Shown here: positions 17,390 through 53,488 of the stretch, one piece after another
How the letters are laid out: every line of letters starts with the position of its first letter
Position numbering within the stretch: position 1 is the stretch's first letter
NCBI GenBank assembly: GCA_041389025.1
Contig: JAWKSP010000002.1
Span: 21,246-85,245, forward strand
DNA from: Minisyncoccota bacterium
GTDB taxonomy: Bacteria; Patescibacteriota; Minisyncoccia; Phycocordibacterales; UBA918
Length of the DNA stretch: 64,000 nucleotides
Reading direction: 5' to 3'
Program-made: the position numbers and the translations under genes
Notes under the pieces: model-generated
Databases searched by the model: none
What the model saw: only the letters and a program-made list of their open reading frames with translations
Told to the model about the DNA's origin: nothing

Positions 17390-17860
17390 TTAATCAGCAT
17401 TTCTTGTGGTTAAAAACCACGGAGTATTAGGATCAACTGACTGTATGGTACTTCCAATAGCTAAACCAGTATCTGACCATTTTACAAACGAAGCAATTTC
17501 ATTTTCCATTGTTAAGGTATTACCATCTAACAAGGCTTGTCTTTTTGCTGAAGAGTCAACATCGTATATATAAGCTGTACAATTACCAATACTTCCTTGC
17601 ATTTCTTCACATAAAAATACAAATTTTTCATCGTTTGATGGGATAGACATTTTTTGGCTGTGATTTAGTTTGTTGACGGTAGTTGGTGATGAGACGTATA
17701 AGTGCTCGGTGTTAGGTGATGAGTCTGTTAATAAAATAAAACCTGTAACAAAACCTATTACATACGACGTAACTATAATTGCTACTCTTTCATGTCTAGT
17801 TCCTTCCATATTTTTATTATTATACTTGATAAATTTTATAAATAATCGACTTTTCCTCAA
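17390..17860 (-). CDS. hypothetical membrane-anchored protein
   Basis: 156-aa ORF. One TM helix (VAIIVTSYVIGFVTGFILL). No known motif. Confidence 0.5.
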   Translation of the reverse strand: MRKSRLFIKFIKYNNKNMEGTRHERVAIIVTSYVIGFVTGFILLTDSSPNTEHLYVSSPTTVNKLNHSQKMSIPSNDEKFVFLCEEMQGSIGNCTAYIYDVDSSAKRQALLDGNTLTMENEIASFVKWSDTGLAIGSTIQSVDPNTPWFLTTRNAD

Positions 17861-17867
17861 CTTAGTA

Positions 17868-18866
17868 TTAAGCAGTTGAGGTTGTAATAATATGATTAAT
17901 TAAATCCTCATAACGTACACCAACCGACTCAACTATTTTTGTATAAGTAGAATCACATGATAACTCAGGTAATGAATTTATTTCTAAAAAATAAATTTTT
18001 CCATCGTCACTTACTATAAAATCAGATCTAGAGTACTGAGAAAGATTTAGAACAGTATGTATTTTTTCAGCTAGTTGTGAAATTTCGTTTTTAATACTAT
18101 ATGTTAAAGTTGAAGGACAATAAAGATCTCTTTGTTTTTTGAGTTTTGCCTCGTAGGTGAAGTAAGGATAATCACTAGAAAAAATTATTTCTCCAGGAGG
18201 AAAAACGTATGTTTTTTCGTTGCGAAAATTTTCTAACAAAGCTACTGAGATTTCTTTTCCATCAATAAATTCTTCAATTAACCAACGGTCTTGATTGCTT
18301 TTGTTGTTAAATAGTCCAAATAATATAGCTTTTAATTCATAAATATTGGCGGCAAAGTATGAGTCTAACGATGAACTATTGGCTATCGGTTTTATGATAT
18401 AGTTTGGGCCAAAAGAATCTTTAATTAAAGTTACGATTTTTTCTAATTCGTTTACGTCAATAATTTCCGGAAGAACGAAGTGTTGAGGAGTTAACACACC
18501 ATAACTCTTTAAAGTGTTTTTTGTAAAAAGTTTGTTAAAAGCCATAGCTGACGATAGTGATGAACTACCATTAAACTTAATGGATTTTTTTTGCAAAATT
18601 TTTTGTAAACTACCATCTTCAGCTGATTTTCCGTGTAATCCTAAAAAAACAATGTCAGCCCCTTCCAAAAGTAAACTAATATTTCTAGATCGACCTTCTT
18701 CCAGGAACTCCTGATTTTTCGTGACTACTATATCTCTGGTTTGGTAGCCTAATCGATTTAATGTTTTTATAGTATCAGAACCTGTACGCATAGAAATAGC
18801 GTAATTACCATCTTTACCACCACGAAACACTGTAACTCGTTGATTTTTTGGCATAGTAAAACTCAT
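17868..18866 (-). CDS. ddl: D-alanine--D-alanine ligase
   Basis: VFLGLHGKSAEDGSLQKIL (cf. LHGrgGEDGtlQG), ATP-grasp motifs, YEAKLKK..LYCP, LEINSLPELS (cf. LEaNTsPGmT). Confidence 0.85.
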   Translation of the reverse strand: MSFTMPKNQRVTVFRGGKDGNYAISMRTGSDTIKTLNRLGYQTRDIVVTKNQEFLEEGRSRNISLLLEGADIVFLGLHGKSAEDGSLQKILQKKSIKFNGSSSLSSAMAFNKLFTKNTLKSYGVLTPQHFVLPEIIDVNELEKIVTLIKDSFGPNYIIKPIANSSSLDSYFAANIYELKAILFGLFNNKSNQDRWLIEEFIDGKEISVALLENFRNEKTYVFPPGEIIFSSDYPYFTYEAKLKKQRDLYCPSTLTYSIKNEISQLAEKIHTVLNLSQYSRSDFIVSDDGKIYFLEINSLPELSCDSTYTKIVESVGVRYEDLINHIITTSTA

Positions 18867-18879
18867 AAATAATTTTTAA

Positions 18880-21645
18880 CTATGATTCTCCAGGGTTTCC
18901 AAGGACGTTAATTCTAGTAGTTGTACTAAAAGTGGTTGGAGTAGCATTTATACAACTTAGTTTAAACAATTGAGTATTAGTAATCAAACTGGTTACAACA
19001 GTGCCACTTACTCTAGTGTTTGAGTCTACCACACCGCTAATAATACTAGGGTTAAATGATAGTGGTGTAAAACTACTTGGTCCGGTTAATTGGCAGTCCA
19101 CATCAATTGATTTCATTTCCCATTCAATTGTAGTTGTGCTACCAGACCTGATAAGAGAAGGATTAGCAGAAAAATCAAATTCTGGGTCAACATCTAAAGC
19201 ATTACCACTATCTGAACCGGTACCGGAACTTGAATCAGCGAGTGAATTTGGATCACTTAGAGTAAAGACAGTTGAATATGATTTTCCGGCTAAGTCAGAT
19301 TGTGAGTAAGTTTCTGGTTCATTAACCTCAATAGTAATTCTTATCGGAGTGTTAATTGGAATATTGTAAAACTCAACTGTTTTTACTGTATCCCAATCAA
19401 CATCAAAGTCGTTAGTAGGATTACTTCCCTGCTTTAAGGTTTGAATAGGTCCAGATGCATTATCTTCAATTGATAAATTATCACCAATATCTAAACTAAC
19501 TAAATATGAAATTGGATTTGATTGTCTGGTCGGATTTTCTAATATTGAAGCGGTATCAAAACTTTGGTCCTGAGCGGCAAAACTAACCTCAATTTTATCG
19601 TAAGTATTTGTAGTATCATCAAAAATACTGGAGCTAGTTGAAATTTCCGGTAGACCCCAGCCTTGGGTTACCAAAAACTTATAGTTTAAGGTATCGGTTG
19701 TTTCCATCCCGTCGGCCGAACCTGCTCCAATGCTATTTACAGCAAACACCTTTAAATAATAATCAGTGCCGTTGCTTAGACCGCTGATACCAATTCGTTT
19801 ATAGTAAGGGATTGTGGTAGTTGATGGTAAAGGTCCTTGCAGATAGCAGCTACTGGCCCAGCTAGCAGCGTAAGCTGAGTCATAGGTTGACGATGCGGCG
19901 TTTAGTTTAAGTGGATCTAAGGCATTTATACTTAGTTGATCAGTTGAATAACATATACCATATTCTTCAATTAAAGAATAACCAGCGTTAGTAATACCCA
20001 GTTGAGGGTTGATGTAATCAGGATTGGTGATGGATGAACCATAATAACCTACTGTTGGTGGAGTTGGGGTGCCGGCAGTTGGGTCAAAAGGCGAAAGATC
20101 AGTGGTAAATGAACCGACTGGTGAAAAGCCCCAGCCAGCATCATTTTTTGCCATCATCCTAAAGTAAACAGTGGTGCTAGCTGGTAAGTTTGTTACGTAG
20201 AAATAAAAAGTGGAGTTACTGCTATTATATCCACTTGTTCTGGTATTACAGGTGCCACTTGAAAGTAATGTAGAAGTACTGTTTGCGTCACTTAATGATG
20301 TTGTCCAACAAACCCCTGTTTCTGTAACAGGTAAGTAGTTGGTGTGAGCATCGGTGGTAGTTCCATAAAGCCAGGCGGTAGAGTTAGTTACTCCATTAAC
20401 CCCATTAATAATTGAACTATAGCTATACAAATTAACCTCAGGAACAGATAGACTTAATGGAACACTGTAATCATAATTACTTGAAGTGGTTGTGTTTCCG
20501 ATATTATCAGTACTTACTATGTAAAATCTGTAGGTGTCGCTTTTACTAAAACTTCCCAAAATATAGGTTACAGAAGTGGAGGTTGTGAATGAAGGATAAA
20601 AAGATGGAATAATTCCATAGGTTGAGCCGGTAGTAAGGTTCTCAACATATAGTTGGCTATTAGCCAACCCAGCATGTGAATCAGCAAGGCTTTGAGTAAC
20701 ACTAACCGAAACTGTACTTGGTGATTCTTCGCTAACTACTTTAAAATCTGTTATTTGAGATGAAGGGGGTGTAGTGTCTATGGTAATTGATTTTACTGAA
20801 GGTAGTCCAGATACCGGTATGCTACCAAATGTCCAAGTCCACTCGGGTGAAGACAGTCTTTCAGTGGTTGATTCACCGTCCAACTCCTCATGAAATGACC
20901 AGAAATATTTTCCGTCAGGAACTCCAGTTGGCAAAGGTATCGCTCTCGTACCTATACCACCACTAGTACTCACTTCCTTAGTGTAAATATCACCTGAAGC
21001 ATGATCTTCTAAATAAAGTTTTATTTTAGTTACATTATTTGTATTATATAAAGATGTAAGCTTGTTTGTTTCAACTAGAAATTCAACTGAAGAAGTGGCG
21101 ATTGCTCCATTGTTTGGAAATGAGGAAGTGGTATTAGGAGAACTTTCTGAAACAGGACTTAGTTGTACATATCCTTTAAAATGGCTACCTCGCATAGCTT
21201 CTAAAGCAGCTGTGTTGCTTGAGTCTGGAAAAAGTGCTGGTGCGGAAAAGGGTTTGTAATTTGCTGAATTCAAAACTAAGACTTGCAAACCATTCTTTGT
21301 TGGGTCAAAACATAGTGACTCTGATTTGTTTACAGCATTATAATTTCTGGTTAAAATCTCGGTTTGGTTAGAAAGACTGTCCTTTATCTTAACAGTCCAT
21401 TTACCAATACTGTTTGAGATTAATGTTTCTGTATCTCTATCTACCAACCATAGTTCAATTGAAGCTTGATTAGCAGAACAATTAACAGTGGCACTATCAT
21501 CTATATACTCCACTCTTGGTGAAAACCAACCAAAAGATTCGTTAGCTAAAACTTGGTTAAAAGAAGCAAAAAATAAAAGAGTTATTAAAAAAAGATAAAA
21601 TGTTGAAAAAATTATTTTTATTTGTGACATAGCTGTAGATTTCAT
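18880..21645 (-). CDS. large secreted surface protein with Fn3-like domain(s); paralog of 22468..25338
   Basis: 921 aa. Signal peptide. Fn3-like motif YFRMMAKNDAGWGFSPVGS. N-terminal ESFGWFSPRVEYIDDSATVNCS and C-terminal ANPSLIRSGSTTTIEWEMKS blocks shared with the paralog. Confidence 0.65.
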   Translation of the reverse strand: MKSTAMSQIKIIFSTFYLFLITLLFFASFNQVLANESFGWFSPRVEYIDDSATVNCSANQASIELWLVDRDTETLISNSIGKWTVKIKDSLSNQTEILTRNYNAVNKSESLCFDPTKNGLQVLVLNSANYKPFSAPALFPDSSNTAALEAMRGSHFKGYVQLSPVSESSPNTTSSFPNNGAIATSSVEFLVETNKLTSLYNTNNVTKIKLYLEDHASGDIYTKEVSTSGGIGTRAIPLPTGVPDGKYFWSFHEELDGESTTERLSSPEWTWTFGSIPVSGLPSVKSITIDTTPPSSQITDFKVVSEESPSTVSVSVTQSLADSHAGLANSQLYVENLTTGSTYGIIPSFYPSFTTSTSVTYILGSFSKSDTYRFYIVSTDNIGNTTTSSNYDYSVPLSLSVPEVNLYSYSSIINGVNGVTNSTAWLYGTTTDAHTNYLPVTETGVCWTTSLSDANSTSTLLSSGTCNTRTSGYNSSNSTFYFYVTNLPASTTVYFRMMAKNDAGWGFSPVGSFTTDLSPFDPTAGTPTPPTVGYYGSSITNPDYINPQLGITNAGYSLIEEYGICYSTDQLSINALDPLKLNAASSTYDSAYAASWASSCYLQGPLPSTTTIPYYKRIGISGLSNGTDYYLKVFAVNSIGAGSADGMETTDTLNYKFLVTQGWGLPEISTSSSIFDDTTNTYDKIEVSFAAQDQSFDTASILENPTRQSNPISYLVSLDIGDNLSIEDNASGPIQTLKQGSNPTNDFDVDWDTVKTVEFYNIPINTPIRITIEVNEPETYSQSDLAGKSYSTVFTLSDPNSLADSSSGTGSDSGNALDVDPEFDFSANPSLIRSGSTTTIEWEMKSIDVDCQLTGPSSFTPLSFNPSIISGVVDSNTRVSGTVVTSLITNTQLFKLSCINATPTTFSTTTRINVLGNPGES

Positions 21646-21654
21646 AAAAAAATA

Positions 21655-22395
21655 CTAAAGAGCAAACAGTTGCGGATAACCAGTAACTGTTATGGTACCA
21701 GACTTAGCTACTGATGAAGATTTAATTATTTGACCATCAATTGATATCTTGTCACCCACTTGCAAGTTGTTTAAAGTTATTTTGTTACCGTTTATAAGAA
21801 CCTCAAACTTCCCAGTTTTATCTATAAAAAAATAACCGGAACCATCTGATTTTGAAATCACTATACGATCTGATTCAATTGCATAAACAGCTCCATTTCC
21901 AGTAAAGTAACTGGTGTCAGTCGAATTATCTTTAGAAACAACTTCTACACTAGCATTGGCACTTAGATATGTTTTTGGAATATTGTTTTCTGTAGCTGGT
22001 AAGGTTTCAGTTTTTCCGTCAGCATATTTAACTAAAATATCAGGTGTTTGAATAGGTACATAATCCAAATTAGAGTTGGTGGCCATAGTGGTCGGTAGAC
22101 TGGTTTTTGTAACTGTATCTATTTCAGATTGTGATAAAATTTGTACTGAATTTACTTCTTTGTCCTCAGTAATATTTGCTGGTTTTCTTACAGCTGGAAG
22201 CATTTTTAAACGCTCTGAAGCAATTTGGTCTTCAGTTAAAATATTAACATTTGGTACAGAAAAGTTTTGAGGATAACTAAGAATGTTTACTTTGTTATCA
22301 ATGTATATATAAGAACCAAAAAAAGCAAAAGCAACCACAATAAAAAAATAAGTAGTATTACGAAGTAGTTGCCTCTCCTCAAAATTATTTAACAT
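21655..22395 (-). CDS. small N-terminally anchored protein; paralog of 25357..26121
   Basis: 246 aa. TM helix TYFFIVVAFAFFGSYIYI. C-terminal block NGNKITLNNLQVGDKISIDG matches VNGKPFSPNELNEGDKISVEG of the paralog. Confidence 0.6.
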   Translation of the reverse strand: MLNNFEERQLLRNTTYFFIVVAFAFFGSYIYIDNKVNILSYPQNFSVPNVNILTEDQIASERLKMLPAVRKPANITEDKEVNSVQILSQSEIDTVTKTSLPTTMATNSNLDYVPIQTPDILVKYADGKTETLPATENNIPKTYLSANASVEVVSKDNSTDTSYFTGNGAVYAIESDRIVISKSDGSGYFFIDKTGKFEVLINGNKITLNNLQVGDKISIDGQIIKSSSVAKSGTITVTGYPQLFAL

Positions 22396-22435
22396 AATTA
22401 TTTACAAATTATACTGCATAATAACTAAAGAAAAA

Positions 22436-22465
22436 AACACCACCTGTGAAAAGGTGGTGTTTTTT
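22436..22465 (-). terminator. hairpin AACACCACC-tgtgaaaa-GGTGGTGTT with T-runs on both sides, separating the two cassettes
   Basis: Read directly. On the minus strand the stem is followed by TTTTTTTCTTT. Confidence 0.65.
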
Positions 22466-22467
22466 GA

Positions 22468-25338
22468 TTAAGTTTCCTCTTGTGAACCTATCACCGTAAC
22501 TCTGGTGTCAGGCGATGAATAAATATTTGTACCAGCAGCAGTACATTCGAGTTTAAATATTTGTGTGCTAGCTAAGTTGGCAGAATCAAAACTACCTCCG
22601 ATTCTTCCGCTAGGTAAATTTGAACTATAGGTAGGATCTGCGGGATCAAAAATTGTCGGTACACCAGTATCCATGGGACCGCTAAAACTGCATGTAAATA
22701 CACCTGGTGCGACACTATCCATCTCCCATTCAAGTGTTGTATTTCTATCCTTTCTTATTAGCGCTGGGTTAGCTGTTAAGCTTATATGAGGATCGGTTGC
22801 GGCGGTTGAGTTGGCATTTGAATTTGTTTGATCAGATGGAAAACTGTTTGGTGGGTACAGTGTACCAAGTAATATTTTGGTTTTATCAAAGTCGCAATTT
22901 GGTTTTGGTGATGGGGTGCTAGTTAAGGGTGCACATGAATAAGAGGTTGGTTCAGGATTTAAAGTAACCTCAATTTTGTATTGTCCAAGAGGAACATCGG
23001 TAAAACTTATATCGTCTATGTCAAGGTATCCACCTTGTGGTGTAGCTGGTATACTACCAGTTTTAGTCTCTTTTAATATAAGATTGTTTGAAGCATCAAG
23101 ACCATAATAAATTCTTGCTTCATAATTTATAGACCTTCTTGCAACGGAGCCCATTGGATTTAAATTATATACAAGACTTGTTTGATCGGTTGGGTTATAA
23201 CTTTCATCGTAAGCGATTACTTTTATATCTACATTATCGTATCTACCAAGCGTACTATCAAAATTACCTAAATACACTTTACCTAAACTTGTTCTGTCAA
23301 CATCGGTGTTATGAAAATAATGACTAAAATGATAGTAAGGAACGACAGTTGATATTTGAGCGTTAGCGAAGCTGTATTCTTCTTCGGTAGATATTCGAGT
23401 AGCTGGTGTCGATAAATCAGCTAAATCATTAAGAAGGAAGGCTCGAAAATAATATGTAGTATTGGGTGATAAACCTAAAAAAGATGGATTGGCTGTAAAT
23501 GGTACGTTAGATGTATTGTTGTTCCAAGATAAACCCGAAGCATTATTTGTTGGGAATAAATTGCAATTTGGATTAACTGTATTTAAAGCATTTGGATAAA
23601 AATTATTTCTATCATCCACATCCAAAAACCAGCACATACCATATAAATCAACATTTCTAGCATGTGTTTTTCTTATTGTAATAGCTGAGCGTATAAAATT
23701 TGTGCTTGGTAATAAACTATCAATGGTAATTTCTACTCTATCTTGATTATTTGGATCAGTAAAAATTGCTGTTGTAGTTATTGAACTATTACTAGTCATC
23801 CCCCAACCAACTGGATTGTGAGCAAATACTCTAAAGTGGACAGTAGTATCTGGAGGCAAACCTGATGCAATTCTGTTAAAGGTATAACTAGAGGAATTTA
23901 GACTAGCTACATCTGTACCGGTGTTTTCACAAGTAATAGAGCCGCTAGGTAAATTATCTAAATCACCGTCGTTGTCTGTGTCGAGTAAAGTTATATCATT
24001 AGTTTTGAAAGATGATATATCACCGTTTACACTAGACCAGCAAACATAAGCTGAATCAATTCCAAAAGGATTGCCGGTATCATTCCAAACAGCGTTTATT
24101 TGTTTTTTGCTGGTGTCAGTTAAAATATCTGTATAAGGAGGGCTATCAAGTGAAATATCAGGAGGATTCGAAGAAGATAAGTCAGGTATGGAAATCGTAT
24201 AGGGTCCGTAAGTTCGATTATTGCCCAAGTTGTCAACGGCTGTAATATAAAAACCATAATTTTTTCCCATATCGAGGTTTGACATAGTGTAATTTAAACT
24301 AAAACTAGAAGTGTAGTCTGGCACTGAATTGTTACTAAAGACAGGTTGAAATGTCATTCCACTGTCTTCGCTATATGATATTTGATAACTTTGTATACCC
24401 GAACCATCATTACTATCGTTAATGGTATAATTGAAACTAACATCAACAGTTGTTGGGCCAACTATATTTGAAACAACTAAATTACTTATATTCGAAATCG
24501 GTGCTGTTCCATCGATAATAACAGATTCAGTCGCTGGAACAGCTGAGGTTGGAATTTTGGAAAAAGTCCAACCACTAGAGTTTGCAGTATTATTTAACTG
24601 AGCGTGCATACTCCATAGATACAGGCCATCCTCAGTAAACGAGATATAGCCAGGTGGTGTACTTATTCTGGAAACAGCTGGGTTTACAACTGAATAGTCA
24701 AACTCATTTATTATATTGTTTTTTGAAAAATAAAATTTTATGGTGTCCACACCAGCGTTTCCATATAAAGTATCTGTATCATTTAAATCAACAGAAAAAG
24801 TAGCATCGCTGGGAGTGTAAGAATTAGCCAAGGTACTAGTTACTAAATCAGGAGTGGTTTGACTTCGTGGTTTTAGTTCAACATAACCAATAAAATGTTG
24901 GCCTATTAAGGATGTATCTGGTGTGGTTGAGTAAACCACTGGTCCACTATAATAACGATAATCTCCCCCGCCACCAGTGTAATTTACCCTAATCCCTTGT
25001 GTTGTGGCATTAAAGCAAATAGGATCAGATTTCTTAGTACCGGCTGAATAAGAAAAATTACGAACAGCAGTTTTAGTATTTTTATTAACAACATTCACGT
25101 TCCAAGTAGAATTTGGGCCTGATATCAAATTTTTAGTCTTAGCTTTAACCAAATGAACCTCAATAGAGGTTTCTTGAGATGAACAAGAAGCTGGGCCTAC
25201 ATAATCAACTCTGGGAGCAAACCAACCATACGAACCAGCGGCCTCAGAGTAGTTGATTCCAATAAATAAAAAACTAAAAAAGAAAGTAATACTTAGAAAT
25301 AAGTTTATTCCAATACATTTATTTATTTTATTATACAT
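22468..25338 (-). CDS. large secreted surface protein with Fn3-like domain(s); paralog of 18880..21645
   Basis: 956 aa. Signal peptide. HFRVFAHNPVGWGMTS Fn3-like motif. Shared N- and C-terminal blocks with the paralog. Confidence 0.65.
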   Translation of the reverse strand: MYNKINKCIGINLFLSITFFFSFLFIGINYSEAAGSYGWFAPRVDYVGPASCSSQETSIEVHLVKAKTKNLISGPNSTWNVNVVNKNTKTAVRNFSYSAGTKKSDPICFNATTQGIRVNYTGGGGDYRYYSGPVVYSTTPDTSLIGQHFIGYVELKPRSQTTPDLVTSTLANSYTPSDATFSVDLNDTDTLYGNAGVDTIKFYFSKNNIINEFDYSVVNPAVSRISTPPGYISFTEDGLYLWSMHAQLNNTANSSGWTFSKIPTSAVPATESVIIDGTAPISNISNLVVSNIVGPTTVDVSFNYTINDSNDGSGIQSYQISYSEDSGMTFQPVFSNNSVPDYTSSFSLNYTMSNLDMGKNYGFYITAVDNLGNNRTYGPYTISIPDLSSSNPPDISLDSPPYTDILTDTSKKQINAVWNDTGNPFGIDSAYVCWSSVNGDISSFKTNDITLLDTDNDGDLDNLPSGSITCENTGTDVASLNSSSYTFNRIASGLPPDTTVHFRVFAHNPVGWGMTSNSSITTTAIFTDPNNQDRVEITIDSLLPSTNFIRSAITIRKTHARNVDLYGMCWFLDVDDRNNFYPNALNTVNPNCNLFPTNNASGLSWNNNTSNVPFTANPSFLGLSPNTTYYFRAFLLNDLADLSTPATRISTEEEYSFANAQISTVVPYYHFSHYFHNTDVDRTSLGKVYLGNFDSTLGRYDNVDIKVIAYDESYNPTDQTSLVYNLNPMGSVARRSINYEARIYYGLDASNNLILKETKTGSIPATPQGGYLDIDDISFTDVPLGQYKIEVTLNPEPTSYSCAPLTSTPSPKPNCDFDKTKILLGTLYPPNSFPSDQTNSNANSTAATDPHISLTANPALIRKDRNTTLEWEMDSVAPGVFTCSFSGPMDTGVPTIFDPADPTYSSNLPSGRIGGSFDSANLASTQIFKLECTAAGTNIYSSPDTRVTVIGSQEET

Positions 25339-25356
25339 AAAAATAAAACTAAAAAA

Positions 25357-26121
25357 TTAAAGACTAATAAAGGTTATTCCTTTAAAAATTACTGTTTTTG
25401 TGTCTAAGACGTGTGTTACACCATGATATCCATAACCCTCAACTGAAATTTTGTCACCCTCATTTAATTCGTTGGGTGAAAAGGGTTTACCGTTAACCAA
25501 AAAATTAGTTTTATTGTCATATTTAGACGTAGCCAAACCCTTACCGTTATCTTGCATAAAAACAATGTAATTATTTACATAATCTATTTCGTGAATTGTA
25601 CCCTCTAAAAACATAAAAGTTTTTTCACCTGTATCTGAAATAGCTTTTATTTCTTCATCACTGGGCGGAGTTTTTGATTGGTTGTATTCTTCTCTACTAA
25701 CGGTTTTAGTTTCAAAAATAACTGTTCCATCCGGCATTATCTCTTTAACTTTTTTTACTTCAACCACATCATTGTTTGTCGGATCTGGGTTTTCAGTTAT
25801 TGCGCCGCTTGGTATTGTGGTCTCGATAACTTTCATTCCACCAGTTTGCGTTATATTTGGTTGGTTATTAATGGCAACGTCTGTCTCATTTGAAGTTTCT
25901 ATTCTTTGATTAAAATCAACTAACTTTTGTTTTTCAAACTGGAATTCCTGCTCTGAAAGCAAACTAATGCTAGGTACGGTGACATTTTCTGGATACGGTT
26001 CAACTACTGAAGACCTGTTTTCTGTATAAGTAATGATAATTACGACTAAAACTAAAACGCCCAAAAAAGCGTAAGTGAGATACTTTAGTATCAAATTTTC
26101 TTTTTCTTGTTGTGGTTGCAT
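25357..26121 (-). CDS. small N-terminally anchored protein; paralog of 21655..22395
   Basis: 254 aa. TM helix LTYAFLGVLVLVVIIITY. Conserved C-terminal motif. Confidence 0.6.
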   Translation of the reverse strand: MQPQQEKENLILKYLTYAFLGVLVLVVIIITYTENRSSVVEPYPENVTVPSISLLSEQEFQFEKQKLVDFNQRIETSNETDVAINNQPNITQTGGMKVIETTIPSGAITENPDPTNNDVVEVKKVKEIMPDGTVIFETKTVSREEYNQSKTPPSDEEIKAISDTGEKTFMFLEGTIHEIDYVNNYIVFMQDNGKGLATSKYDNKTNFLVNGKPFSPNELNEGDKISVEGYGYHGVTHVLDTKTVIFKGITFISL

Positions 26122-26196: not shown

Positions 26197-27432
26197 TTAT
26201 TTTTTAAAGGATTTTTGATTTAGATTTCTAAAATAATTTATAGCAAATCTATGTGCTTCTGCATTCGCCAACAGTATTTCGTCTTTGTACTTCCCAACGA
26301 TTTTATTTGAAGAAACAATTTTTATCGGCTTGTGTTTATCGTTTTTTACCACCGACACCACCGGTATGGATAAATTATTTTCTTTTAAAACACTTTCGGC
26401 GGCTGTTTTTTGTATTGTGTTACCGTCAACCACTATCAAGTTTGGTAATATCCACTCTTTATGCTCCAATCGTCTCATCAAAACTTCTTTTAACGCTGCC
26501 GGATCATTGGCGTCAGACAAGGTTTTTATTTTGAATTTTCGGTAGTCACTATTTTTAGTTTGACAATCTTCAATTACAACCATTACTCCAACCATGTCTT
26601 TACCACGATAATGCGCAACATCATATCCTTCTATTCTAAAACTTTTACCGTCTTGAAATCGTTTATAATCATTATTTATTAAGGAAATGTCATTAATATG
26701 TTTGAGGCCAAAAATTCTTTTCTTGTAGATGCTAGCTTTTTCAAACGCTTCTTTTTTGGCTGCCAACATCATTTCCTTTTCGAGTTCTTTTATAATTATT
26801 TGCTTTTTTCCTTGAAATAAAAGAGCGATATGTTTAATAGTTTTATTATATTCATCTTTATTGTCAACCTCAGGATATAGTCCTATTTGACGATTAAAAT
26901 CAATTTGGCCTTTAATCATTTTTGATTTTTCCTTCCCGATTGGTAATCGGGTGTCATAATACTTAAAAAGTCGCCTAACTACTTTTAATGCTTCACGTAA
27001 TAATGAAGCGCTGGTAAACGGTCCGAATTCATATTTAAGATCTTTCTTACTAAATTTTTCAGTTAAATCTTTACCTCTTACCAAAAGAACTCGGGGGTAA
27101 TCTTCTTTTGTGATTATAAGATGATTATAACTTTTATCATCTTTGCTTCTAGTATTATATTTGGGTTTATGAGATCTTATTAGGTTGGTTTCCAGTATAA
27201 GGGCCTCTAAAACGCTTTCGGTTTCGGTATAATCTACATCAAAAGACTCGGTCACCATTTTTTTTATTAATTCTGAGCGCTTTATTTCTATATCACTAGA
27301 AAAATAACTTGATACTCTGTTTTTTAAAGATGTGGCCTTACCAATATATAAAATTTCTTTTTTAGAACCACGAAAAAAGTACACTCCCGGTTTATCTGGT
27401 AGCTCATTAATTTTAAAATCAGTTCTTTTCAT
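26197..27432 (-). CDS. uvrC: excinuclease ABC subunit C, short form (GIY-YIG + RNase H-like endonuclease domain, no C-terminal HhH)
   Basis: PGVYFFRGSKKEILYIGKATSLKNRVSSYF GIY-YIG motif. C-terminal IVVDGNTIQKTAAESVLKENNLSIPVVSVVK. Only 411 aa. Confidence 0.7.
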   Translation of the reverse strand: MKRTDFKINELPDKPGVYFFRGSKKEILYIGKATSLKNRVSSYFSSDIEIKRSELIKKMVTESFDVDYTETESVLEALILETNLIRSHKPKYNTRSKDDKSYNHLIITKEDYPRVLLVRGKDLTEKFSKKDLKYEFGPFTSASLLREALKVVRRLFKYYDTRLPIGKEKSKMIKGQIDFNRQIGLYPEVDNKDEYNKTIKHIALLFQGKKQIIIKELEKEMMLAAKKEAFEKASIYKKRIFGLKHINDISLINNDYKRFQDGKSFRIEGYDVAHYRGKDMVGVMVVIEDCQTKNSDYRKFKIKTLSDANDPAALKEVLMRRLEHKEWILPNLIVVDGNTIQKTAAESVLKENNLSIPVVSVVKNDKHKPIKIVSSNKIVGKYKDEILLANAEAHRFAINYFRNLNQKSFKK

Positions 27433-30139: not shown

Positions 30140-30976
30140 TTATTTTTTTGCTAACGGACAATCATGCTTACTTAATATAAGTGCAACCAAGTCGTTTAAA
30201 TTAGTAGTGGCTTTTATCAAAAAGTCATCGGCTTTTAGTTTACTGGCGATTTCTCTATCTCGAGGCGTATCTTTATTAGAAAAAACGATGACGGGTAACT
30301 TAGAAAAAGTTTCGTCATCGCGTATTTCTTTTAAAACATCCAAACCATTTTTACCCGGCAACATGATGTCAAGTAGGATCAGGGTTGGTGTATATTCTCT
30401 GAGTATTTGAAAGGCATCTAGTCCATTGTGGCAAAATTTAAAGGGTATTTTACTCTTGGTTAATTTTATAGAAAGCATGTCTCTTAGTAAGGGATCATCT
30501 TCAAAAATTAAAATACGCATTTCAATGTTATTTTTTTCTTTTATTGGTAACTTTTTACTTTCTGTAATATCAATGTAGCTTTCACTTTTTTTTGGATTAT
30601 TATTTTCTAATATTGATTTTTCAGCAATTTCCAATAAATCAGAAAAATTAAGATTTTCTTTGTTTGTAGAATATTTGTAATTTAAATCAATTTTATCATT
30701 AGAAGTATTTGCTATAACTAAAATAACCGGTATTCGGTTTGCGGTTAGATTGTTTAAATCAGTTACTAATTCTTTGTCGTTGTTTACAGTACATTCAACA
30801 ATTACAAAATCTGGTTTTAGACTCTTTATATCTTCAATGCCATCTTTAACAGTTTTTGAAGCTACGACTTCAACACCCGCAAAAGAAAGAGTCTTTTCGA
30901 CGGTATTTAGAAAACCAAGATCAGTACCTAAAATTAGGGCTTTCTTTCCAAGTAAAGTTTTTCTTTCTTGTGTCAT
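30140..30976 (-). CDS. response-regulator receiver protein with two REC-like domains and no output domain
   Basis: C-terminal REC: ILIFEDDPLLRDM..LILLDIMLPGKNGLDVL..PVIVFSNK. N-terminal half is a degenerate REC-like fold. No DNA-binding domain. No histidine kinase in the window. Confidence 0.7.
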   Translation of the reverse strand: MTQERKTLLGKKALILGTDLGFLNTVEKTLSFAGVEVVASKTVKDGIEDIKSLKPDFVIVECTVNNDKELVTDLNNLTANRIPVILVIANTSNDKIDLNYKYSTNKENLNFSDLLEIAEKSILENNNPKKSESYIDITESKKLPIKEKNNIEMRILIFEDDPLLRDMLSIKLTKSKIPFKFCHNGLDAFQILREYTPTLILLDIMLPGKNGLDVLKEIRDDETFSKLPVIVFSNKDTPRDREIASKLKADDFLIKATTNLNDLVALILSKHDCPLAKK

Positions 30977-37872: not shown

Positions 37873-38433
37873 TCAATTGGTATTACTCAAGCTTTTATCA
37901 ATGATTCCTTTTAACTCTTCTTCACTTAAAGTACCTCTAAAATGTTTTTCAACATTTCCTTTTTTATCATAAACAATAGTTTCTGGCATGGCATAACCAC
38001 CGATTAATTTATAAAATCTATCTTCCGGATCTAAAATTATTTTGACTGTTTCTACTTGAGAAACTGTGTTTATATAGCGTTTTGCCCTATCTTTACTTTC
38101 TTTTCGATTAATGGCCAAAAAAACCACTTTTTCTTGATCGTAGTTTAATGCTACTTTATCTAAAAGTTCTAACTCCATTTTTGAATAAGGTGACCAACTA
38201 GCCCAAGATGTAACGACCATTATTTTACCAAGGTACTCTTTTAGTGATAATTGATTGCCTTCCAAGTCTGTATATACAGCAGGTTTTTCTTCCTGTCCGA
38301 TAAATATATCTCTGACTTTTTCGTCAACTACATTTTTATTATTAGTTACAATAAAGTAAGTTAATATCGCTAAAATAATTATAGTCACAAATCCAGCGAC
38401 AAGAATTTTTTTATGTTCCTTTGCAATTGGCAT
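37873..38433 (-). CDS. TlpA/redoxin-like thioredoxin-fold protein lacking the CxxC cysteines (SPYS in their place), membrane-anchored
   Basis: VVTSWASWSPYSKMELELL aligns with the WAxWCxPC redoxin motif but both Cys are Ser. N-terminal TM anchor. Confidence 0.6.
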   Translation of the reverse strand: MPIAKEHKKILVAGFVTIIILAILTYFIVTNNKNVVDEKVRDIFIGQEEKPAVYTDLEGNQLSLKEYLGKIMVVTSWASWSPYSKMELELLDKVALNYDQEKVVFLAINRKESKDRAKRYINTVSQVETVKIILDPEDRFYKLIGGYAMPETIVYDKKGNVEKHFRGTLSEEELKGIIDKSLSNTN

Positions 38434-38450
38434 ACTGATTAATAACTAGA

Positions 38451-39131
38451 CTAAATACCTAATTCGACTCGCCATTGTTCGTATGGTAAAGCTCCAACTA
38501 CTGGTGTAACCGAATCACCATCAATAATTAAACTAAAAGGTGTTCCATTCGCTCCCAATTGTCTGGCTACATCTAAATCGGTTGAAATGAGAGTGTTGAT
38601 ATTATTATCACTCATACAAGAATTGTAAGTAGATTCAGATAAACCGGCTGATAAAGCGTAATTTTTTAAGAAATCCTCATTGTTTGAACCAACATTAGCA
38701 AATAAAATTTCTGTAAAATTCCAAAAAGCGTCGTTTCCTAATTCTCTAGCTATACATTCCGCAGAAACAGCTGCTAAAAAAGCATTTTCGTGAATTGGCA
38801 AAGGCAAGTGTCTGTATTCCCAAGCTATTTTTCCATTTGATTCATCTACGATTCTTTTTAAGGTTGGATGAAGTCTGGCACAAAATGGACACTCAAAATC
38901 AGAGAACTCAACAATCACTATATCAGCTTCTTCACTACCATATAAATGTCTATATTCACCCCTCTTAATTTCATCAGGACTTAGACTTATGCTAGCTGAT
39001 GCGCTTGCTACATTTGTCTTTTGTTCAGTTATAACCGAAGAATTTGTAGAAAACTTGAAAAATATTGCTACAGCTACCAAACCAAAACCTAAAACAATTG
39101 AAGTGGCGATTTGTGTGTGATTTAATTGCAT
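38451..39131 (-). CDS. DsbA-family thiol:disulfide oxidoreductase
   Basis: EFSDFECPFCARLHP active-site CPFC. N-terminal anchor. Confidence 0.8.
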   Translation of the reverse strand: MQLNHTQIATSIVLGFGLVAVAIFFKFSTNSSVITEQKTNVASASASISLSPDEIKRGEYRHLYGSEEADIVIVEFSDFECPFCARLHPTLKRIVDESNGKIAWEYRHLPLPIHENAFLAAVSAECIARELGNDAFWNFTEILFANVGSNNEDFLKNYALSAGLSESTYNSCMSDNNINTLISTDLDVARQLGANGTPFSLIIDGDSVTPVVGALPYEQWRVELGI

Positions 39132-39662: not shown

Positions 39663-41327
39663 TTATAAGTTTAGATTGCTACCCAAGAAGATAATTATCG
39701 ATTGATCGCCAAGCGTTGCATCGTTGGTAATAGATATTAGTGCGTTGTTTAGCTCTCCACTTAGTTTAATGGCGTCTTCTTGATATTCTCTTTTGTACAC
39801 AATAACCGTTTTCTCTTGCTCTGTTTCCAGATCAGCTTCCAATTTATCTATTTTGTAGCCATTTTCTTCAAGTTTCAATCTCAGCTTGGCTGCCGCACCG
39901 GATTCACCGCTTCTATTTACTATCATAATTTTTGATGTCTCATTGTCAATATTTTTCTCCAAATCAAGTGGTTGGTTGTTGAGTTGATTGTAAATAATTT
40001 CCTCAGAATTCATTTCTAACTTCTCTACTCCGTTGTTGTATGAAATGGCAAAACTTCGTTTATCGGTAGTCGCTCCGTTTATATACCAAACGAAAAATAT
40101 AATCAATGATAGCAAAAAGAGACCAGCCAACATTGTTGTTTTATAATGATTAAAAAATTTCCAAACTGTGAAGAGTCTATCTTTTTTACTATTTTCAAAA
40201 CTTAAACCGGATTTTAAGTCTAAGATTTTTTCTTTGGTCGGTATATGTATTTTTAAATACCGTTTACTTTTTAGGCGGTTATTCAACTCAGCTTCTGACC
40301 TTAAGTGTGATACATCCAGTCCGGCAGACGACAACATTTTTCTTATGTATAGTCTAATTAGAAAAGCTGAACCATAAATAATTAACCCAACAGTAAGAAT
40401 GAATATCAAAATTGGTTTAACTGGAATTATCCAAAAATAAGTTTTGGAGGTAGAAAATTGTCTTTGGTCCTGTCCGTAAGCTAAGGTCGCAATGGCCGAA
40501 TAACGACCAATATCTGTTGGCGACCACTCTCCTGTCCAAGAAAACTTAAAGTTTCTGATGCCAGTGGTACCGTCGGTTTTATGCGGAACCTTCCCGTAAC
40601 TACTTTTCTGGTTTATCGGTATAACACCCCGCTCCTGACCCCACATGTTTAAAATTTTTATTTCACCCTGTGGTTGCAAATAGACATTCCCTTTGTTTTC
40701 AAAGCGTAAGCTAAAGTCAACTGCCGGCTCCTGAAAAAGAACCTTACTGGTGATAAATTCCCTTATTTCACCGGACTCAATAACATCGCCGTCAATTCTG
40801 GTAAAAATAAGAGTGGTGACCATCTGAGATGTTTGTAGATTTGGTTGCTCACCGCTTGTGTCTAACGGTTTCGTGCCAATCATGATGGCCGCATAGTGTC
40901 CACCTGGCGCTGCATTGCTCGGGACGTTTATTTCAAAAGGTATTTCTATACTTTGTTCCCTTGGTACTAAAACAGGTTCTTTACTAACCGAAATCCAACT
41001 TCCAAGTGTTGGTTTATTTATGTCATCTTTATCTATGCTTACAAAACTAACAGAACCACCTTCTTCTTTAGGTATAAAATTAAATACTTCCGCATACACA
41101 GTTATATCTCGTTCATTTACATTTATTACTTTAATTCCACTTTTCCATTTTTGATTGGGTTCAGCACGCATGTCAAAAATAGTTGGTGAAACACTTAGTG
41201 TTAGTGAATCTTGAGCGCTTGCATGGCTTGTAAAAAATAAAAAAGAAATTAATAGGAAAACTAACAGTAGTATCACACTATAAATCTTTTTTGAGGTTAA
41301 TATCATGTTCATATTTGTCATGTTCAT
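39663..41327 (-). CDS. surface protein: DUF916-like N-terminal beta domain, two TM helices, C-terminal LytR_C-like domain
   Basis: N-terminal SLTLSVSPTIFDMRAEP..VINVNERDITVYAEV resembles DUF916. C-terminal IVNRSGESGAAAKLRLKLEENGYKIDKLEADLETEQEKTVIVYK resembles LytR_C. Confidence 0.5.
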   Translation of the reverse strand: MNMTNMNMILTSKKIYSVILLLVFLLISFLFFTSHASAQDSLTLSVSPTIFDMRAEPNQKWKSGIKVINVNERDITVYAEVFNFIPKEEGGSVSFVSIDKDDINKPTLGSWISVSKEPVLVPREQSIEIPFEINVPSNAAPGGHYAAIMIGTKPLDTSGEQPNLQTSQMVTTLIFTRIDGDVIESGEIREFITSKVLFQEPAVDFSLRFENKGNVYLQPQGEIKILNMWGQERGVIPINQKSSYGKVPHKTDGTTGIRNFKFSWTGEWSPTDIGRYSAIATLAYGQDQRQFSTSKTYFWIIPVKPILIFILTVGLIIYGSAFLIRLYIRKMLSSAGLDVSHLRSEAELNNRLKSKRYLKIHIPTKEKILDLKSGLSFENSKKDRLFTVWKFFNHYKTTMLAGLFLLSLIIFFVWYINGATTDKRSFAISYNNGVEKLEMNSEEIIYNQLNNQPLDLEKNIDNETSKIMIVNRSGESGAAAKLRLKLEENGYKIDKLEADLETEQEKTVIVYKREYQEDAIKLSGELNNALISITNDATLGDQSIIIFLGSNLNL

Positions 41328-42321
41328 GTGATTTTCTTACAAACACCGGTAGCTCCGTAGCTTCATAGTTATCACGTATATCACTATCGGTTTGTTTACC
41401 TGCTTTTACCAATAGAACTGTAATTGTCAGTGGTATTAATAATAACAGTATTATTAAACCAATCAACAGTGGAAGAGGTATTGTATAGTAGTAATTAGTG
41501 TCATGTAATGAAGCTAAGTGACTGTTTCCATACTGTAATGATAAAAAAGCTTTGTTCTTACCAAAAACATTGGTTTTAGGAAGCGGTTCGGAAAAATCAA
41601 CTTTTTCTCCAGGAGCAATAGTAACGTTCTCCGTGTTTAATAAAACAGCTGTCACTTCTTCACCTTTTCCGTTGTAAATTATAATTTCACCTTTAGGAGT
41701 AAGTGGTACATCACCCTCATTTTTTAACGAATAAGAAAATTCATGATTATCACTATCGTAAATTACATTATCGGTCTTAAAACTTGTTAGTCTAAGCAGT
41801 TCGACCTGTTTTTCATCTATTGAAATTCTCACGATAACTCCATCAGCTACTCCAGCTTTTACTTTATTTTCCGCTATATCTCTATTTTTTCCATTTCCAA
41901 AGCCAATGAATCCATGGTATTCACCTGGTTTTGCATTGGGGTTTATTCTTATAGTTACCGGAACGGAGATCATTTCTCCTGGTTGAATATCAATTCTTGC
42001 TCTGGAAATCTCTACCCAGCTAGTAATTGAAACGGTTCTGTCTGTCATTGAAGCTGGAATAAAAGATTTTACCTCATCATCACCACCTATTTCAATTTCA
42101 TGTACGGAAGCAAATAACCTTGTTGGTACATTACCATTATTTTTAATGGTAATTTCTTTAGTAATAATATCTCTCACTTCAGTTTTATGATCAATTATTA
42201 GGGGTGAGACAGAAATAGTGTTTACAGCTTCAGTGAGTTTAGGATTTATCAAAATAACTGAAAAAATAAAAATACCACTGAAAAATTTAATATTTTTTAG
42301 AATTTTAAATTTTAATTTCAT
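41278..42321 (-). CDS. DUF916/DUF3324-like cell-surface protein (signal peptide + beta-rich ectodomain + C-terminal TM anchor)
   Basis: NTISVSPLIIDHKTEVRDIITKEITIKNNGNVPTRLFASVHEIEI then C-terminal helix LLIGLIILLLLIPLTITVLLV. This architecture is typical of WxL-locus accessory proteins in Firmicutes. Confidence 0.45.
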   Translation of the reverse strand: MKLKFKILKNIKFFSGIFIFSVILINPKLTEAVNTISVSPLIIDHKTEVRDIITKEITIKNNGNVPTRLFASVHEIEIGGDDEVKSFIPASMTDRTVSITSWVEISRARIDIQPGEMISVPVTIRINPNAKPGEYHGFIGFGNGKNRDIAENKVKAGVADGVIVRISIDEKQVELLRLTSFKTDNVIYDSDNHEFSYSLKNEGDVPLTPKGEIIIYNGKGEEVTAVLLNTENVTIAPGEKVDFSEPLPKTNVFGKNKAFLSLQYGNSHLASLHDTNYYYTIPLPLLIGLIILLLLIPLTITVLLVKAGKQTDSDIRDNYEATELPVFVRKSHEHDKYEHDINLKKDL

Positions 42322-52186: not shown

Positions 52187-53488
52187 TTATTTGTTTAATT
52201 CATCGATATCGTTTAATTCTTTTTCAATTCTATACTTGGATGAAGACAGAGCCGATTTCATACCGGTAACCACATCATCTTCAGCTTTTGTGAGTTTTTT
52301 CGTGCGCCGTGAGTTTACAAGTTCAGTTTCATAAGCGTCCATAAATCTTTCTAGCTCCGTAAACTCCCGTTTCAAGATGGCGATGGCTTCGGTGGATTCG
52401 GTTTGTACTCGCTTTCGATAGCGCTTAAATCTCAGCAAGGTATACCAAATCAAGAAAGCTAAAAGAGTCAATGTGCCTACTAGTGGAACTATTACCGATA
52501 AAATATCCACTACATAACTACCAATCCTAACAAATCCCGGTTCTTGAACTGCTATTCTAATTGATTCAGATCTTTCGGATACCGCGCCAAAAGCGTCAGT
52601 TGCCACGACTTCTAACTCATAAACACCCTTTGATAGAGTACTTTCCGGTATAAAGACAAATTCACCACTTTCGTTTGCTTTCAAATTATATTCAATTTGG
52701 TTGGCGCCAACCTTTTTTAAAAAGACATTAACATCTGAACCTGGTCTGGTCATTCCTTTAATAACCGGTATAACTTGATCGTTTATTTCATTTGGGTATT
52801 CGGTGAAGGTAGGCTTATCAAATGCGGTAATTGTAAATGAATAGGTTGAAATCAAAGCATTTCCAGCACCATCAATAGCTTCTGCCACTATAGAATGATA
52901 TCCAGGGGATAAACTAGGGAGTGTGAATTCACCAGTTTCATCTATATCAATAAACTCAACCGGCTCTTCTTCATCGATTTTAATCTTATAGTTTTTTACG
53001 CCTGATGTCTCATCTTCTGTTTCAAACAAAAGAGTTTGGTTCGGCGAGCTAAAATCAACACCTTCTGGAGAAGTGATAGTAAACAAAGTCGGTGATTTAC
53101 TATCGACCGCCAGACGGTAGTGAGCCACTTTACCCCAGCCGTTTTCATTTTTAAATTGCAAATGGAAATATAACTCACCTTCCGGTAACGAATCTAAAGT
53201 AATGGTGTTAATTGGTGTGTTATAGACCTTGGTTGGTATGGAACTTGGTGTGGTATCCAATAAGGTTCTAACTGCCACAATGTCGTTTGGCACAGTCCAG
53301 TTTAAAATTGCTGTATCATTTTTATACCAAGAATTACTGTCAACGTGAGTGGATGATGTTATTTTTGGTGTTTGCGGAGTATTCGCCACTGGCACATACC
53401 AACCACCTCCGGTTCCGGCTGAGAACTCACGGCTTGAATAGTGTACGTTCCACCGACATATTTGAAATAATGTTTGAACCCATTCCAT
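52187..53488 (-). CDS. Ig-like-domain surface protein with C-terminal TM anchor and coiled-coil tail; probably the C-terminal part of one gene with 53491..53952
   Basis: No signal peptide of its own. C-terminal helix VVDILSVIVPLVGTLTLLAFLIWY. Architecture matches the C-terminal two-thirds of paralog 53956..55047. Confidence 0.55.
   Translation of the reverse strand: MEWVQTLFQICRWNVHYSSREFSAGTGGGWYVPVANTPQTPKITSSTHVDSNSWYKNDTAILNWTVPNDIVAVRTLLDTTPSSIPTKVYNTPINTITLDSLPEGELYFHLQFKNENGWGKVAHYRLAVDSKSPTLFTITSPEGVDFSSPNQTLLFETEDETSGVKNYKIKIDEEEPVEFIDIDETGEFTLPSLSPGYHSIVAEAIDGAGNALISTYSFTITAFDKPTFTEYPNEINDQVIPVIKGMTRPGSDVNVFLKKVGANQIEYNLKANESGEFVFIPESTLSKGVYELEVVATDAFGAVSERSESIRIAVQEPGFVRIGSYVVDILSVIVPLVGTLTLLAFLIWYTLLRFKRYRKRVQTESTEAIAILKREFTELERFMDAYETELVNSRRTKKLTKAEDDVVTGMKSALSSSKYRIEKELNDIDELNK

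Follow-up and report, generated by a model that had tools for sequence, protein, structure and literature searches.

Between uvrC and ddl (the gene for D-Ala-D-Ala ligase) of a Minisyncoccota bacterium (GenBank assembly GCA_041389025.1, contig JAWKSP010000002.1), two pairs of genes follow each other on the minus strand. Each pair codes for a small protein with an N-terminal membrane anchor and for a large secreted protein. The stretch of 64,000 nucleotides that was analysed (positions 21,246 to 85,245 of the contig) is referred to as the window; the pair next to uvrC is called cassette A and the pair next to ddl cassette B (Table 1). Are the two cassettes copies of one unit, and what does the small protein do for the large one? 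The pairs are paralogous gene for gene, as a preliminary description made from the sequence alone had claimed. As to the second question, we are inclined, with modest confidence, to regard the cassette as a two-component cell-surface assembly of a subset of Paceibacteria (Patescibacteria, or Candidate Phyla Radiation, CPR) in which each large protein is tethered by the small protein encoded with it.

Relationship and distribution of the cassettes

BLASTP with composition-adjusted statistics aligns the large proteins practically end to end (residues 13-956 of large A with 18-921 of large B, E=2e-71, 27% identity) and the small proteins over about 200 residues (E=4e-11, 25% identity). Confinement of the resemblance to low-complexity segments, a concern raised in the preliminary description, is not what the alignment displays: invariant columns of the large proteins, formed by W, C, G, P, D, F and Y, are distributed from one end to the other, so that low complexity does not account for the resemblance. 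All motifs quoted earlier are present in the four proteins. In the large proteins, an N-terminal block, AGSYGWFAPRVDY (A) or NESFGWFSPRVEY (B), immediately follows the predicted signal-peptide cleavage site and a C-terminal block reads ANPALIRKDRNTTLEWEM (A) or ANPSLIRSGSTTTIEWEM (B); the small proteins share EGDKISVEG (small A) or VGDKISIDG (small B). Similarity between the cassettes was also looked for at the nucleotide level and none was detected. The window contains no third copy.

To see how widespread the large protein is, 1.84 billion cluster representatives were searched exhaustively by HMMER with a profile of large A and large B. Of 204 matches, about 35-40 are full-length or N-terminal-module relatives of 860-1040 aa (30 at E<=1e-30), the rest being only generic fibronectin type III (Fn3)-like domains of unrelated giant proteins. 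The family is rare but real. A word-indexed homologue search with large A was empty because a 43-aa fragment represents its cluster, and when the query was a profile of 14 small proteins, this kind of search retrieved nothing beyond members of the query. A scan of genome contigs retrieved nothing with a two-sequence alignment and succeeded with an 8-sequence one; a metagenome scan gave only two short fragments. Loci (L001 to L017) were gathered by pattern scan and exact-protein look-up.

The search of related genomes that had been suggested in the preliminary description recovered the pair on about 14 other contigs. Among 18 cassettes with a visible upstream region, 17 carry a homologous small gene immediately upstream of the large one. 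The 18th (L015) has an upstream open reading frame (ORF) with the same architecture of a transmembrane (TM) segment plus beta structure, its similarity not being significant. When independent upstream ORFs were scored against a profile built from the small proteins of nine cassettes, E values ranged from 3e-51 to 2.5e-10, L015 excepted.

The layout uvrA-uvrC-(small+large)n-ddl-t, where t is a further ORF described below, recurs in L001, L002, L003, L004, L008/L009 (the complete 1.09-Mb Ca. Nomurabacteria genome), L010, L013 and L017. Two cassettes are found at five loci (the window, L001, L003, L007 and L010) and one at five others (L002, L004, L008, L013 and L017). The pair also occurs outside the uvrC-ddl setting, in L005, L011/L012, L014 and L015. 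Duplication always takes both genes.

To estimate the age of the duplication, neighbour-joining trees with 200 bootstrap replicates were constructed separately from small and large proteins. The closest relative, L001 (UvrC 74% identical), likewise has the two cassettes between uvrC and ddl, arranged in the same order. Cassette A of the window groups with the first cassette of L001 and with L008 (bootstrap 92% for small and 97.5% for large proteins), and cassette B with the second cassette of L001 (100% in both trees); two cassettes of one genome are sisters in none of the 200 replicates. Since A and B types group with other genomes and never with each other, the duplication is, judging from these trees, old, and both copies have been kept, in agreement with what had been supposed from their divergence. 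L008 has only an A-type and L002 only a B-like cassette, so the duplication appears to have been followed by differential loss. Tandem duplication in situ is the simplest origin. In L003 the types of small protein stand in reverse order (B-like first), the second large protein being of unresolved affinity, and this leaves room for recombination or independent events.

Both trees display matching A and B clades, and the distance matrices of small and large proteins are correlated (Mantel r=0.74, p=4e-4). Position upstream of the large gene in 17 cassettes, this correlation and duplication of both genes together bear out the suggestion that the small protein is a dedicated partner of the large one. 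Both partners also evolve much faster than their housekeeping neighbours: between the window and L001, identity is 41% for large A, 59% for large B, 49% for small A and 46% for small B, and 70-92% for FKBP, TGT, UvrA, UvrB, UvrC and the response regulator.

Architecture of the large and small proteins

A model of large A was computed by AlphaFold2 from a 25-sequence alignment (mean predicted local distance difference test score, pLDDT, 73.4; N-terminal domains 87-94). It is all-beta, with about seven beta-sandwich/Fn3 domains (D1-D7, Table 1), and large B has the identical domain order. One homologue in the family (P0128) lacks D5. That the large protein contains Fn3, as stated previously, holds for large A (PF00041, 45.5 bits against a gathering score of 25, E=9e-12, residues 283-374); large B stays below the cut-off with 16.3 bits, its homologous region aligning with that of large A. 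No Pfam or NCBIfam family matches the N-terminal module of about 280 residues (D1-D2), and no curated family covers this module, the C-terminal domain or the small protein. A PDB sequence search with large A gave no meaningful match. Foldseek returned generic beta-sandwich strings only (TM-scores <=0.21), namely macroglobulin (MG) chains of complement and alpha-2-macroglobulin (A2M), mastigoneme, contactin, cytokine receptors and phage Fn3 proteins.

Several features are common to the family. The signal peptide is followed within a few residues by [S/A]-[Y/F/S]-G-W-[F/L] in 37 of 39 members, and most members end with V-x-G-x-x-x-E-[ILVT]-COOH. Mean identity is highest in D1 (36%) and D7 (35%) and lowest in D3, D4 and D6 (23-24%). 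Mature proteins are of 88-100 kDa, with isoelectric points (pI) of 4.0-5.0, and S, T and N together make up 27-34% of both large proteins of the window. The family has four conserved Cys pairs. They go well with a DsbA-like gene in the window, which is consistent with the extracytoplasmic disulfide formation that these pairs would need.

As a separate observation, the Fn3-like domain with a conserved Cys pair (about positions 510-615 of the profile) is repeated, in at most 16-28 copies, in giant proteins (1700-4300 aa) that other metagenomic organisms encode (P0138, P0142, P0156, P0163 and P0177). It appears to be a widespread, poorly annotated type of repeat.

We asked how such a protein might be kept on the cell. 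Its sole TM-like window is the signal peptide. Sortase anchoring was rejected, as C-terminal LPXTG occurs in none of 39 family members and LPxT[GAS] is only internal (6 of 39). Lipoprotein and SLH anchoring are likewise ruled out: the lipobox [LVI][ASTVI][GAS]C is absent from the signal-peptide end of all 39 members, and none of the four window proteins matches SLH, CWB2 or LysM in Pfam or NCBIfam at E<=1. In these respects the large proteins differ from other Ig-like/Fn3 surface proteins, such as SbsB and fibrillar adhesins, with which they share a Sec signal, a chain of beta-sandwiches, acidity, S/T-richness and a variable exposed region. They have neither SLH, CWB2, LysM, LPXTG or lipobox nor a C-terminal TM segment, their domains are distinct and in fixed order instead of tandem repeats, and they are coupled to a dedicated small-protein gene. 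A secreted surface protein of many Ig-like domains is known in kind; a dedicated anchor partner is what we propose here.

The small protein may provide the missing link to the membrane. The AlphaFold2 model of small B, derived from a 14-sequence alignment, predicts a TM helix, a short conserved helix, a disordered stalk and a six-stranded barrel (Table 1). Alignment with small B gives small A the same plan, with an N-terminal TM anchor, the conserved juxtamembrane segment VPxxxLLSEQEFxxEKQKL, a variable stalk and a C-terminal beta-barrel carrying GDKISVEG. The stalk comprises about 90-130 S/T/E/P-rich residues. Since N-termini of several homologues carry net positive charge, an N-in/C-out topology is favoured.

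When the small B barrel was compared with known structures by Foldseek, all covering matches among the top 50 were oligonucleotide/oligosaccharide-binding (OB) domains, with E>=6e-3. They include CspA (TM-score 0.55-0.61), the cold-shock domain (CSD) of Unr (0.62), periplasmic CusF (0.54), S1, the anticodon-binding domain of LysRS and Ten1, the TM-scores (0.54-0.62) being normalised to single-domain targets. The model thus suggests that the barrel is an OB-fold. Small B also has sub-threshold matches to BOF (PF04076, 18.5 bits against a cut-off of 25.8), TIGR00156 (17 against 108) and NF033674 (17.8 against 35), none of which is matched by small A. DUF5666 (PF18914) is matched by one of nine small proteins (E=1.7e-4), the two of the window being without a match. 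PDB sequence searches with small A and with the small-protein profile gave no meaningful match.

The likeness to BOF/YgiW/YdeI and DUF5666 proteins consists of an extracytoplasmic beta-barrel of about 80 residues, a G-D-x-[IV] motif and weak matches to their hidden Markov models (HMMs), and the modelled fold matches OB domains that include CusF. Proteins of the BOF family occur in diderms, where they are soluble in the periplasm and have had their signal peptide cleaved off. The barrel described here differs from BOF and DUF5666 in that its scores lie below the curated cut-offs, that it sits on a long disordered stalk with a TM anchor and that it has a giant partner.

Possible roles of the pair

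Taken together, these features can be arranged as follows. The small protein would sit in the membrane as a type-II (N-in) protein, its disordered stalk being long enough to span the cell wall and to display the OB-fold barrel outside. The large protein would be exported by Sec, cleaved just ahead of its conserved [S/A]-[Y/F]-G-W-[F/L] N-terminus and folded as an acidic rod in which disulfides stabilise about seven beta-sandwich/Fn3 domains. Since it has no anchor of its own, the cognate small protein would hold it on the cell. The OB head would probably grip a conserved end, namely D1 or else the C-terminal domain, which terminates in G-x-x-x-E-[ILV]-COOH, so placed that the variable middle domains point outward. 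The complex might serve as an S-layer-like (surface-layer-like) envelope or as a structure for contact with a host or partner; lattice and fibrillar contact structure both fit the modelled tether. Ancient duplication would have given A and B versions, each with its own tether, of which lineages today have one or both.

Pairing, co-divergence, age of the duplication, domain architecture, export signals, fast evolution and the absence of known anchors and enzymatic domains are directly supported; physical interaction, surface retention and biological role are what we infer from them. Several points weigh against the tether. Interaction of the two proteins and any S-layer lattice are proposals that come from genes and models. 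The OB-fold is assigned on weak scores. The domain order of the large protein is fixed and non-repetitive, unlike that of classic fibrillar adhesins. In L016, a related Kaiserbacteria genome, the order is uvrC-ugd-ddl and the cassette is absent; the module thus belongs to particular lineages and can be dispensed with, so that it is no essential part of the envelope. Finally, gene adjacency and co-divergence are equally expected for a chaperone or an assembly factor.

Such a factor is the strongest competitor of the tether. Stationed near the Sec exit, the small protein would bind the emerging large protein transiently by its OB-fold, and the large protein would fold or oligomerise with this help and then be released or kept by other means. 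Besides the adjacency and co-divergence that it predicts, a chaperone would suit the juxtamembrane helix, which lies just outside the membrane and is, the barrel aside, the best conserved element of the small protein, and it had already been suggested in the preliminary description. On the other hand, a disordered spacer of about 90-130 residues is needless at the membrane surface and typical of wall-spanning tethers, the large protein would be left without any alternative anchor, and searches of Pfam, NCBIfam and PDB sequences detected no similarity of the small protein to known foldases or chaperones. We consider a chaperone unlikely, while giving it some weight. Of the earlier wording "partner or chaperone", the partner is upheld by pairing and co-divergence, and the chaperone fits less well than an anchor or tether.

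The classical ligands of OB-folds are oligonucleotides or oligosaccharides, and in many enzymes that degrade polymers Fn3-like domains are present as well. According to a review (PMC13293708), DNA is presumably taken up by Patescibacteria. The pair might thus capture extracellular ligands, the OB-fold binding nucleic acid or oligosaccharide and the large protein binding polymers, as a means of scavenging for a metabolically reduced CPR cell; the top fold matches of the barrel, nucleic-acid-binding CSD and S1 domains, would agree with this. We regard such a role as improbable, as signatures of nucleases, glycosidases, ComEA/ComEC and carbohydrate-binding modules are absent from the four proteins (Pfam, NCBIfam) and the acidity of both proteins (pI 4-5) does not favour binding of DNA. 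Moreover, fast type-specific co-divergence suggests protein-protein specificity over a generic ligand, and the uvrC neighbour is only lineage synteny, the cassette being found elsewhere as well.

The best PDB matches of the large protein in Foldseek are MG-domain chains of complement C3/C4/C5, A2ML1, CD109 and bacterial A2M (E down to 8e-15), and large B has a weak Pfam MG2 match (E=0.08). An A2M-like protease trap with the small protein as its membrane partner is nevertheless very hard to reconcile with the data, and the missing thioester rules it out: the motif C[GA]EQ occurs in none of 39 family members, and there is no Pfam match to A2M, thioester or receptor-binding domains. These structural matches have TM-scores <=0.18 and reflect generic beta-sandwich strings only. 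Bacterial A2Ms are lipoproteins of about 1500-1650 aa; the family is far below this size, with about 900 aa, and has no lipobox.

Composition, gene calling or a duplication introduced very recently by assembly might in principle have produced the similarity artificially, and S-, T- and N-richness of both large proteins and the empty first homologue search could point that way. This is ruled out by the composition-corrected E value and by independent assemblies sharing the layout, and it is also at odds with invariant W, C, G and P columns, with the lack of DNA-level identity between the copies and with the 35-40 full-length relatives.

Returning to the tether, we examined what kind of structure it might hold. 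Size (about 88-100 kDa), pI of 4-5, the all-beta model and secretion are compatible with an S-layer and no more specific than that. By analogy with SlaA/SlaB, the cassette could be the S-layer of a Paceibacteria lineage, two-component and convergent with the archaeal one; this narrower proposal is speculative and we hold it only tentatively. In it, an OB-fold "stalk" would span the wall and carry a seven-domain "canopy" of about 100 kDa, and alternative or mixed A and B lattices would set specificity towards hosts or phages.

SlaA and SlaB form the S-layer of archaeal Sulfolobales and are encoded by adjacent genes, the former being a large secreted canopy of many beta-sandwiches and the latter a smaller membrane-anchored stalk that keeps the canopy at a distance from the membrane. 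The likeness, which concerns organisation only and is known here from genes, lies in adjacent genes for an anchorless fast-evolving large protein and a membrane stalk. SlaB has a C-terminal TM segment and a coiled-coil stalk, as opposed to the N-terminal TM segment, disordered stalk and OB-fold head found here; the gene order here is small then large, and the host is a CPR bacterium. No homology to SlaA/SlaB was detected by Pfam, NCBIfam or PDB sequence matches, and the fold matches are generic. Tannerella forsythia offers an earlier example of large paralogous surface-layer proteins whose two genes are adjacent and have both been kept. Its tandemly encoded S-layer proteins TfsA and TfsB are exported by the type IX secretion system through a C-terminal domain signal and anchored via the outer membrane. 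They differ in lacking a small tether gene, and homology with the large proteins described here is not detectable.

Patescibacteria are ultra-small and mostly episymbiotic, so their biology leans heavily on the cell surface. To our knowledge, type IV pili aside, CPR envelope proteins are almost unknown at the molecular level. S-layers have been seen by microscopy in some Patescibacteria (review PMC13293708), and we found no Paceibacteria protein assigned to an S-layer in the literature. Literature searches on DUF5666, on Parcubacteria and Fn3 and on Paceibacteria and S-layers likewise yielded nothing on the small+large pair. With its syntenic locus, fast evolution and duplication as a two-gene unit, the cassette is a testable candidate for an envelope or host-contact structure, well defined and narrowly distributed, its proposed function being inferred. 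The A and B pairs offer a natural experiment in partner specificity. If true, the tether would be a new means by which monoderm-like bacteria keep proteins on their surface with neither sortase nor SLH nor lipid anchors, and an S-layer would be the first envelope lattice of Paceibacteria to be identified in molecular terms, with a new anchoring principle. Should the tether fail, annotation of about 40 clusters of "hypothetical" proteins is still upgraded.

Transcription signals and neighbouring genes

Table 1. Features of the cassette locus, of its surroundings and of the encoded proteins. Positions refer to the window unless another locus is named; protein features are given in residues.
Feature	Position	Strand	Length	Remarks
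small A	25357-26121	minus	254 aa	MEZ4104317.1, "hypothetical"
large A	22468-25338	minus	956 aa	MEZ4104316.1, "fibronectin type III domain-containing protein"
small B	21655-22395	minus	246 aa	MEZ4104315.1, "hypothetical"
large B	18880-21645	minus	921 aa	MEZ4104314.1, "hypothetical"
large A signal peptide	residues 1-33
large A D1	residues 34-160
large A D2	residues 161-277
large A D3	residues 278-388			Fn3; Pfam E=9e-12
large A D4	residues 389-528			Fn3-like, conserved Cys pair
large A D5	residues 529-652			Fn3-like, conserved Cys pair
large A D6	residues 653-829
large A linker	residues 830-850			S/N/T-rich, low confidence
large A D7	residues 851-956			C-terminal Ig-like domain, ends ...VIGSQEET
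small B TM helix	residues 4-35			pLDDT ~90
small B short helix	residues 55-64			conserved; family motif VPxxNxLTxEExxxERxKL
small B stalk	residues 70-157			disordered, pLDDT <50
small B barrel	residues 161-239			six-stranded, pLDDT 86-90
intrinsic-terminator-like hairpin	22432-22465	minus		between cassettes A and B, then T run
TATAAT hexamer	22408-22413	minus		perfect; 12 nt upstream of small B start codon
uvrC	26197-27432	minus	411 aa	Pfam; conserved upstream boundary of the cassette locus
ddl	17868-18866	minus		D-Ala-D-Ala ligase, Pfam; starts 13 nt past large B stop
ddl, L001	16500-17471
ORF t	17390-17809	minus	139 aa	from conserved start MEGTRHER...SYVIGFVTGF; N-anchored
ORF t, L002	9710-10189
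ORF t, L003	13524-14081
ORF t, L004	9611-10219
ORF t, L008	9544-10104
ORF t, L013	9604-10194
ORF t, L017	13639-14100
large protein-Ddl ORF, L017	9973-13605		1210 aa	called as single product
Big_13 gene, L016	857-3400
Big_13 gene, L017	1531-3972
response regulator	30140-30976			directly abuts uvrA
AhpC/redoxin	37873-38433	minus		adjoins DsbA-like gene
DsbA-like thioredoxin	38451-39131	minus
secreted/envelope genes	39663-60670	minus	~20 kb
WxLIP_PGBD+LytR_C	39663-41327	minus
DUF7507-like protein	41278-42321	minus
ORF	42325-48495	minus	2056 aa	no Pfam match
ORF	48544-50598	minus	684 aa	no Pfam match
Big_13 protein	52187-53488	minus
cohesin-domain protein	53491-53952	minus	153 aa	Pfam E=3e-6
dockerin protein	56607-57806	minus	399 aa	DUF4215, Big_6, C-terminal Dockerin_1 (E=5e-6)

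The window has the gene order uvrB, response regulator, uvrA, uvrC (411 aa), cassettes, ddl, a small membrane ORF and two tRNA-Ala genes. The NCBI gene call for large B uses an internal Met and gives 916 aa. The terminator that had been placed between the copies at 22436-22465 was found there as a hairpin with a T run, in slightly wider limits (Table 1). It has 14 pairs, 5 of them G-C (A-T pairs of the flanking A and T runs counted), with the G+C-rich core ACACCACCT/AGGTGGTGT. In L003, a terminator is likewise located 3' of the cassette bearing the A-type small protein. The TATAAT hexamer, read directly from the sequence and absent from the promoter-scan listing, is a candidate for the -10 element of a separate transcript of cassette B; its -35 match is poor. 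The terminator after A and the hexamer before B suggest that each cassette is expressed separately. The ddl gene is probably co-transcribed with cassette B, as the stop of large B is only 13 nt away.

Conserved synteny makes ddl the downstream neighbour of the cassettes in L001-L004, L008, L013 and L017. A functional tie to uvrC was rejected, because the cassette occurs in other contexts and a related genome has uvrC and ddl without it; the tie of the cassette to both genes is one of synteny, not of function. ORF t comes after ddl in every syntenic locus, and its HMM has matches only beside ddl (E 1e-49 to 2e-80 for complete ORFs, 2e-17 for a copy cut at the end of contig L001). Members of its family have 139-202 aa, the pattern MEGT+xER...SY[VI]IGF[VT]... 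and a conserved Cys pair, without a Pfam, PADLOC or PHROG match. In the window the listed ORF begins at an upstream TTG, the conserved start being an internal Met. As a third component of the module ORF t was rejected, since it tracks ddl and not the cassette, and it may not belong to the module. A phage or anti-phage defence origin is ruled out by the absence of PHROG and PADLOC matches (E<=0.01) for five proteins.

Several further observations concern the neighbours. UvrC of the window is a short form, with GIY-YIG, UVR and RNase-H-like endonuclease domains and no Pfam match to the C-terminal helix-hairpin-helix. More than 7900 homologues from Patescibacteria match it and those listed are mostly of about 410 aa, so the short form is, as far as these matches tell, a lineage trait. 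Ddl of the window is 52% identical to that of L001, while UvrA, UvrB and TGT are 81-92% identical; next to the cassette, Ddl seems to diverge unusually fast for a housekeeping cell-wall enzyme. In L017, a single product has been called for the large protein together with Ddl. The last 40 or so residues of the large protein are frameshifted there in comparison with P0133, so that an assembly error is the most likely cause of the fusion. This ORF is closely followed downstream by a resolvase/Prim-Pol mobile element. In L016 and L017, genes for a Big_13 protein (813-847 aa) and a histidine kinase lie between the response regulator gene and uvrA; in the window the response regulator directly abuts uvrA, and the Big_13 gene and the histidine kinase are absent there.

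Farther away, the DsbA-like thioredoxin gene adjoins one for AhpC/redoxin, and a stretch of about 20 kb is occupied by genes for secreted or envelope proteins, including a WxLIP_PGBD+LytR_C protein, a DUF7507-like protein, a Big_13 protein and two long ORFs. Genes for a cohesin-domain protein and for a protein with a C-terminal Dockerin_1 domain are found close together within the same stretch, and the two might represent a cohesin-dockerin pair for surface assembly in this metagenome-assembled Paceibacteria genome.

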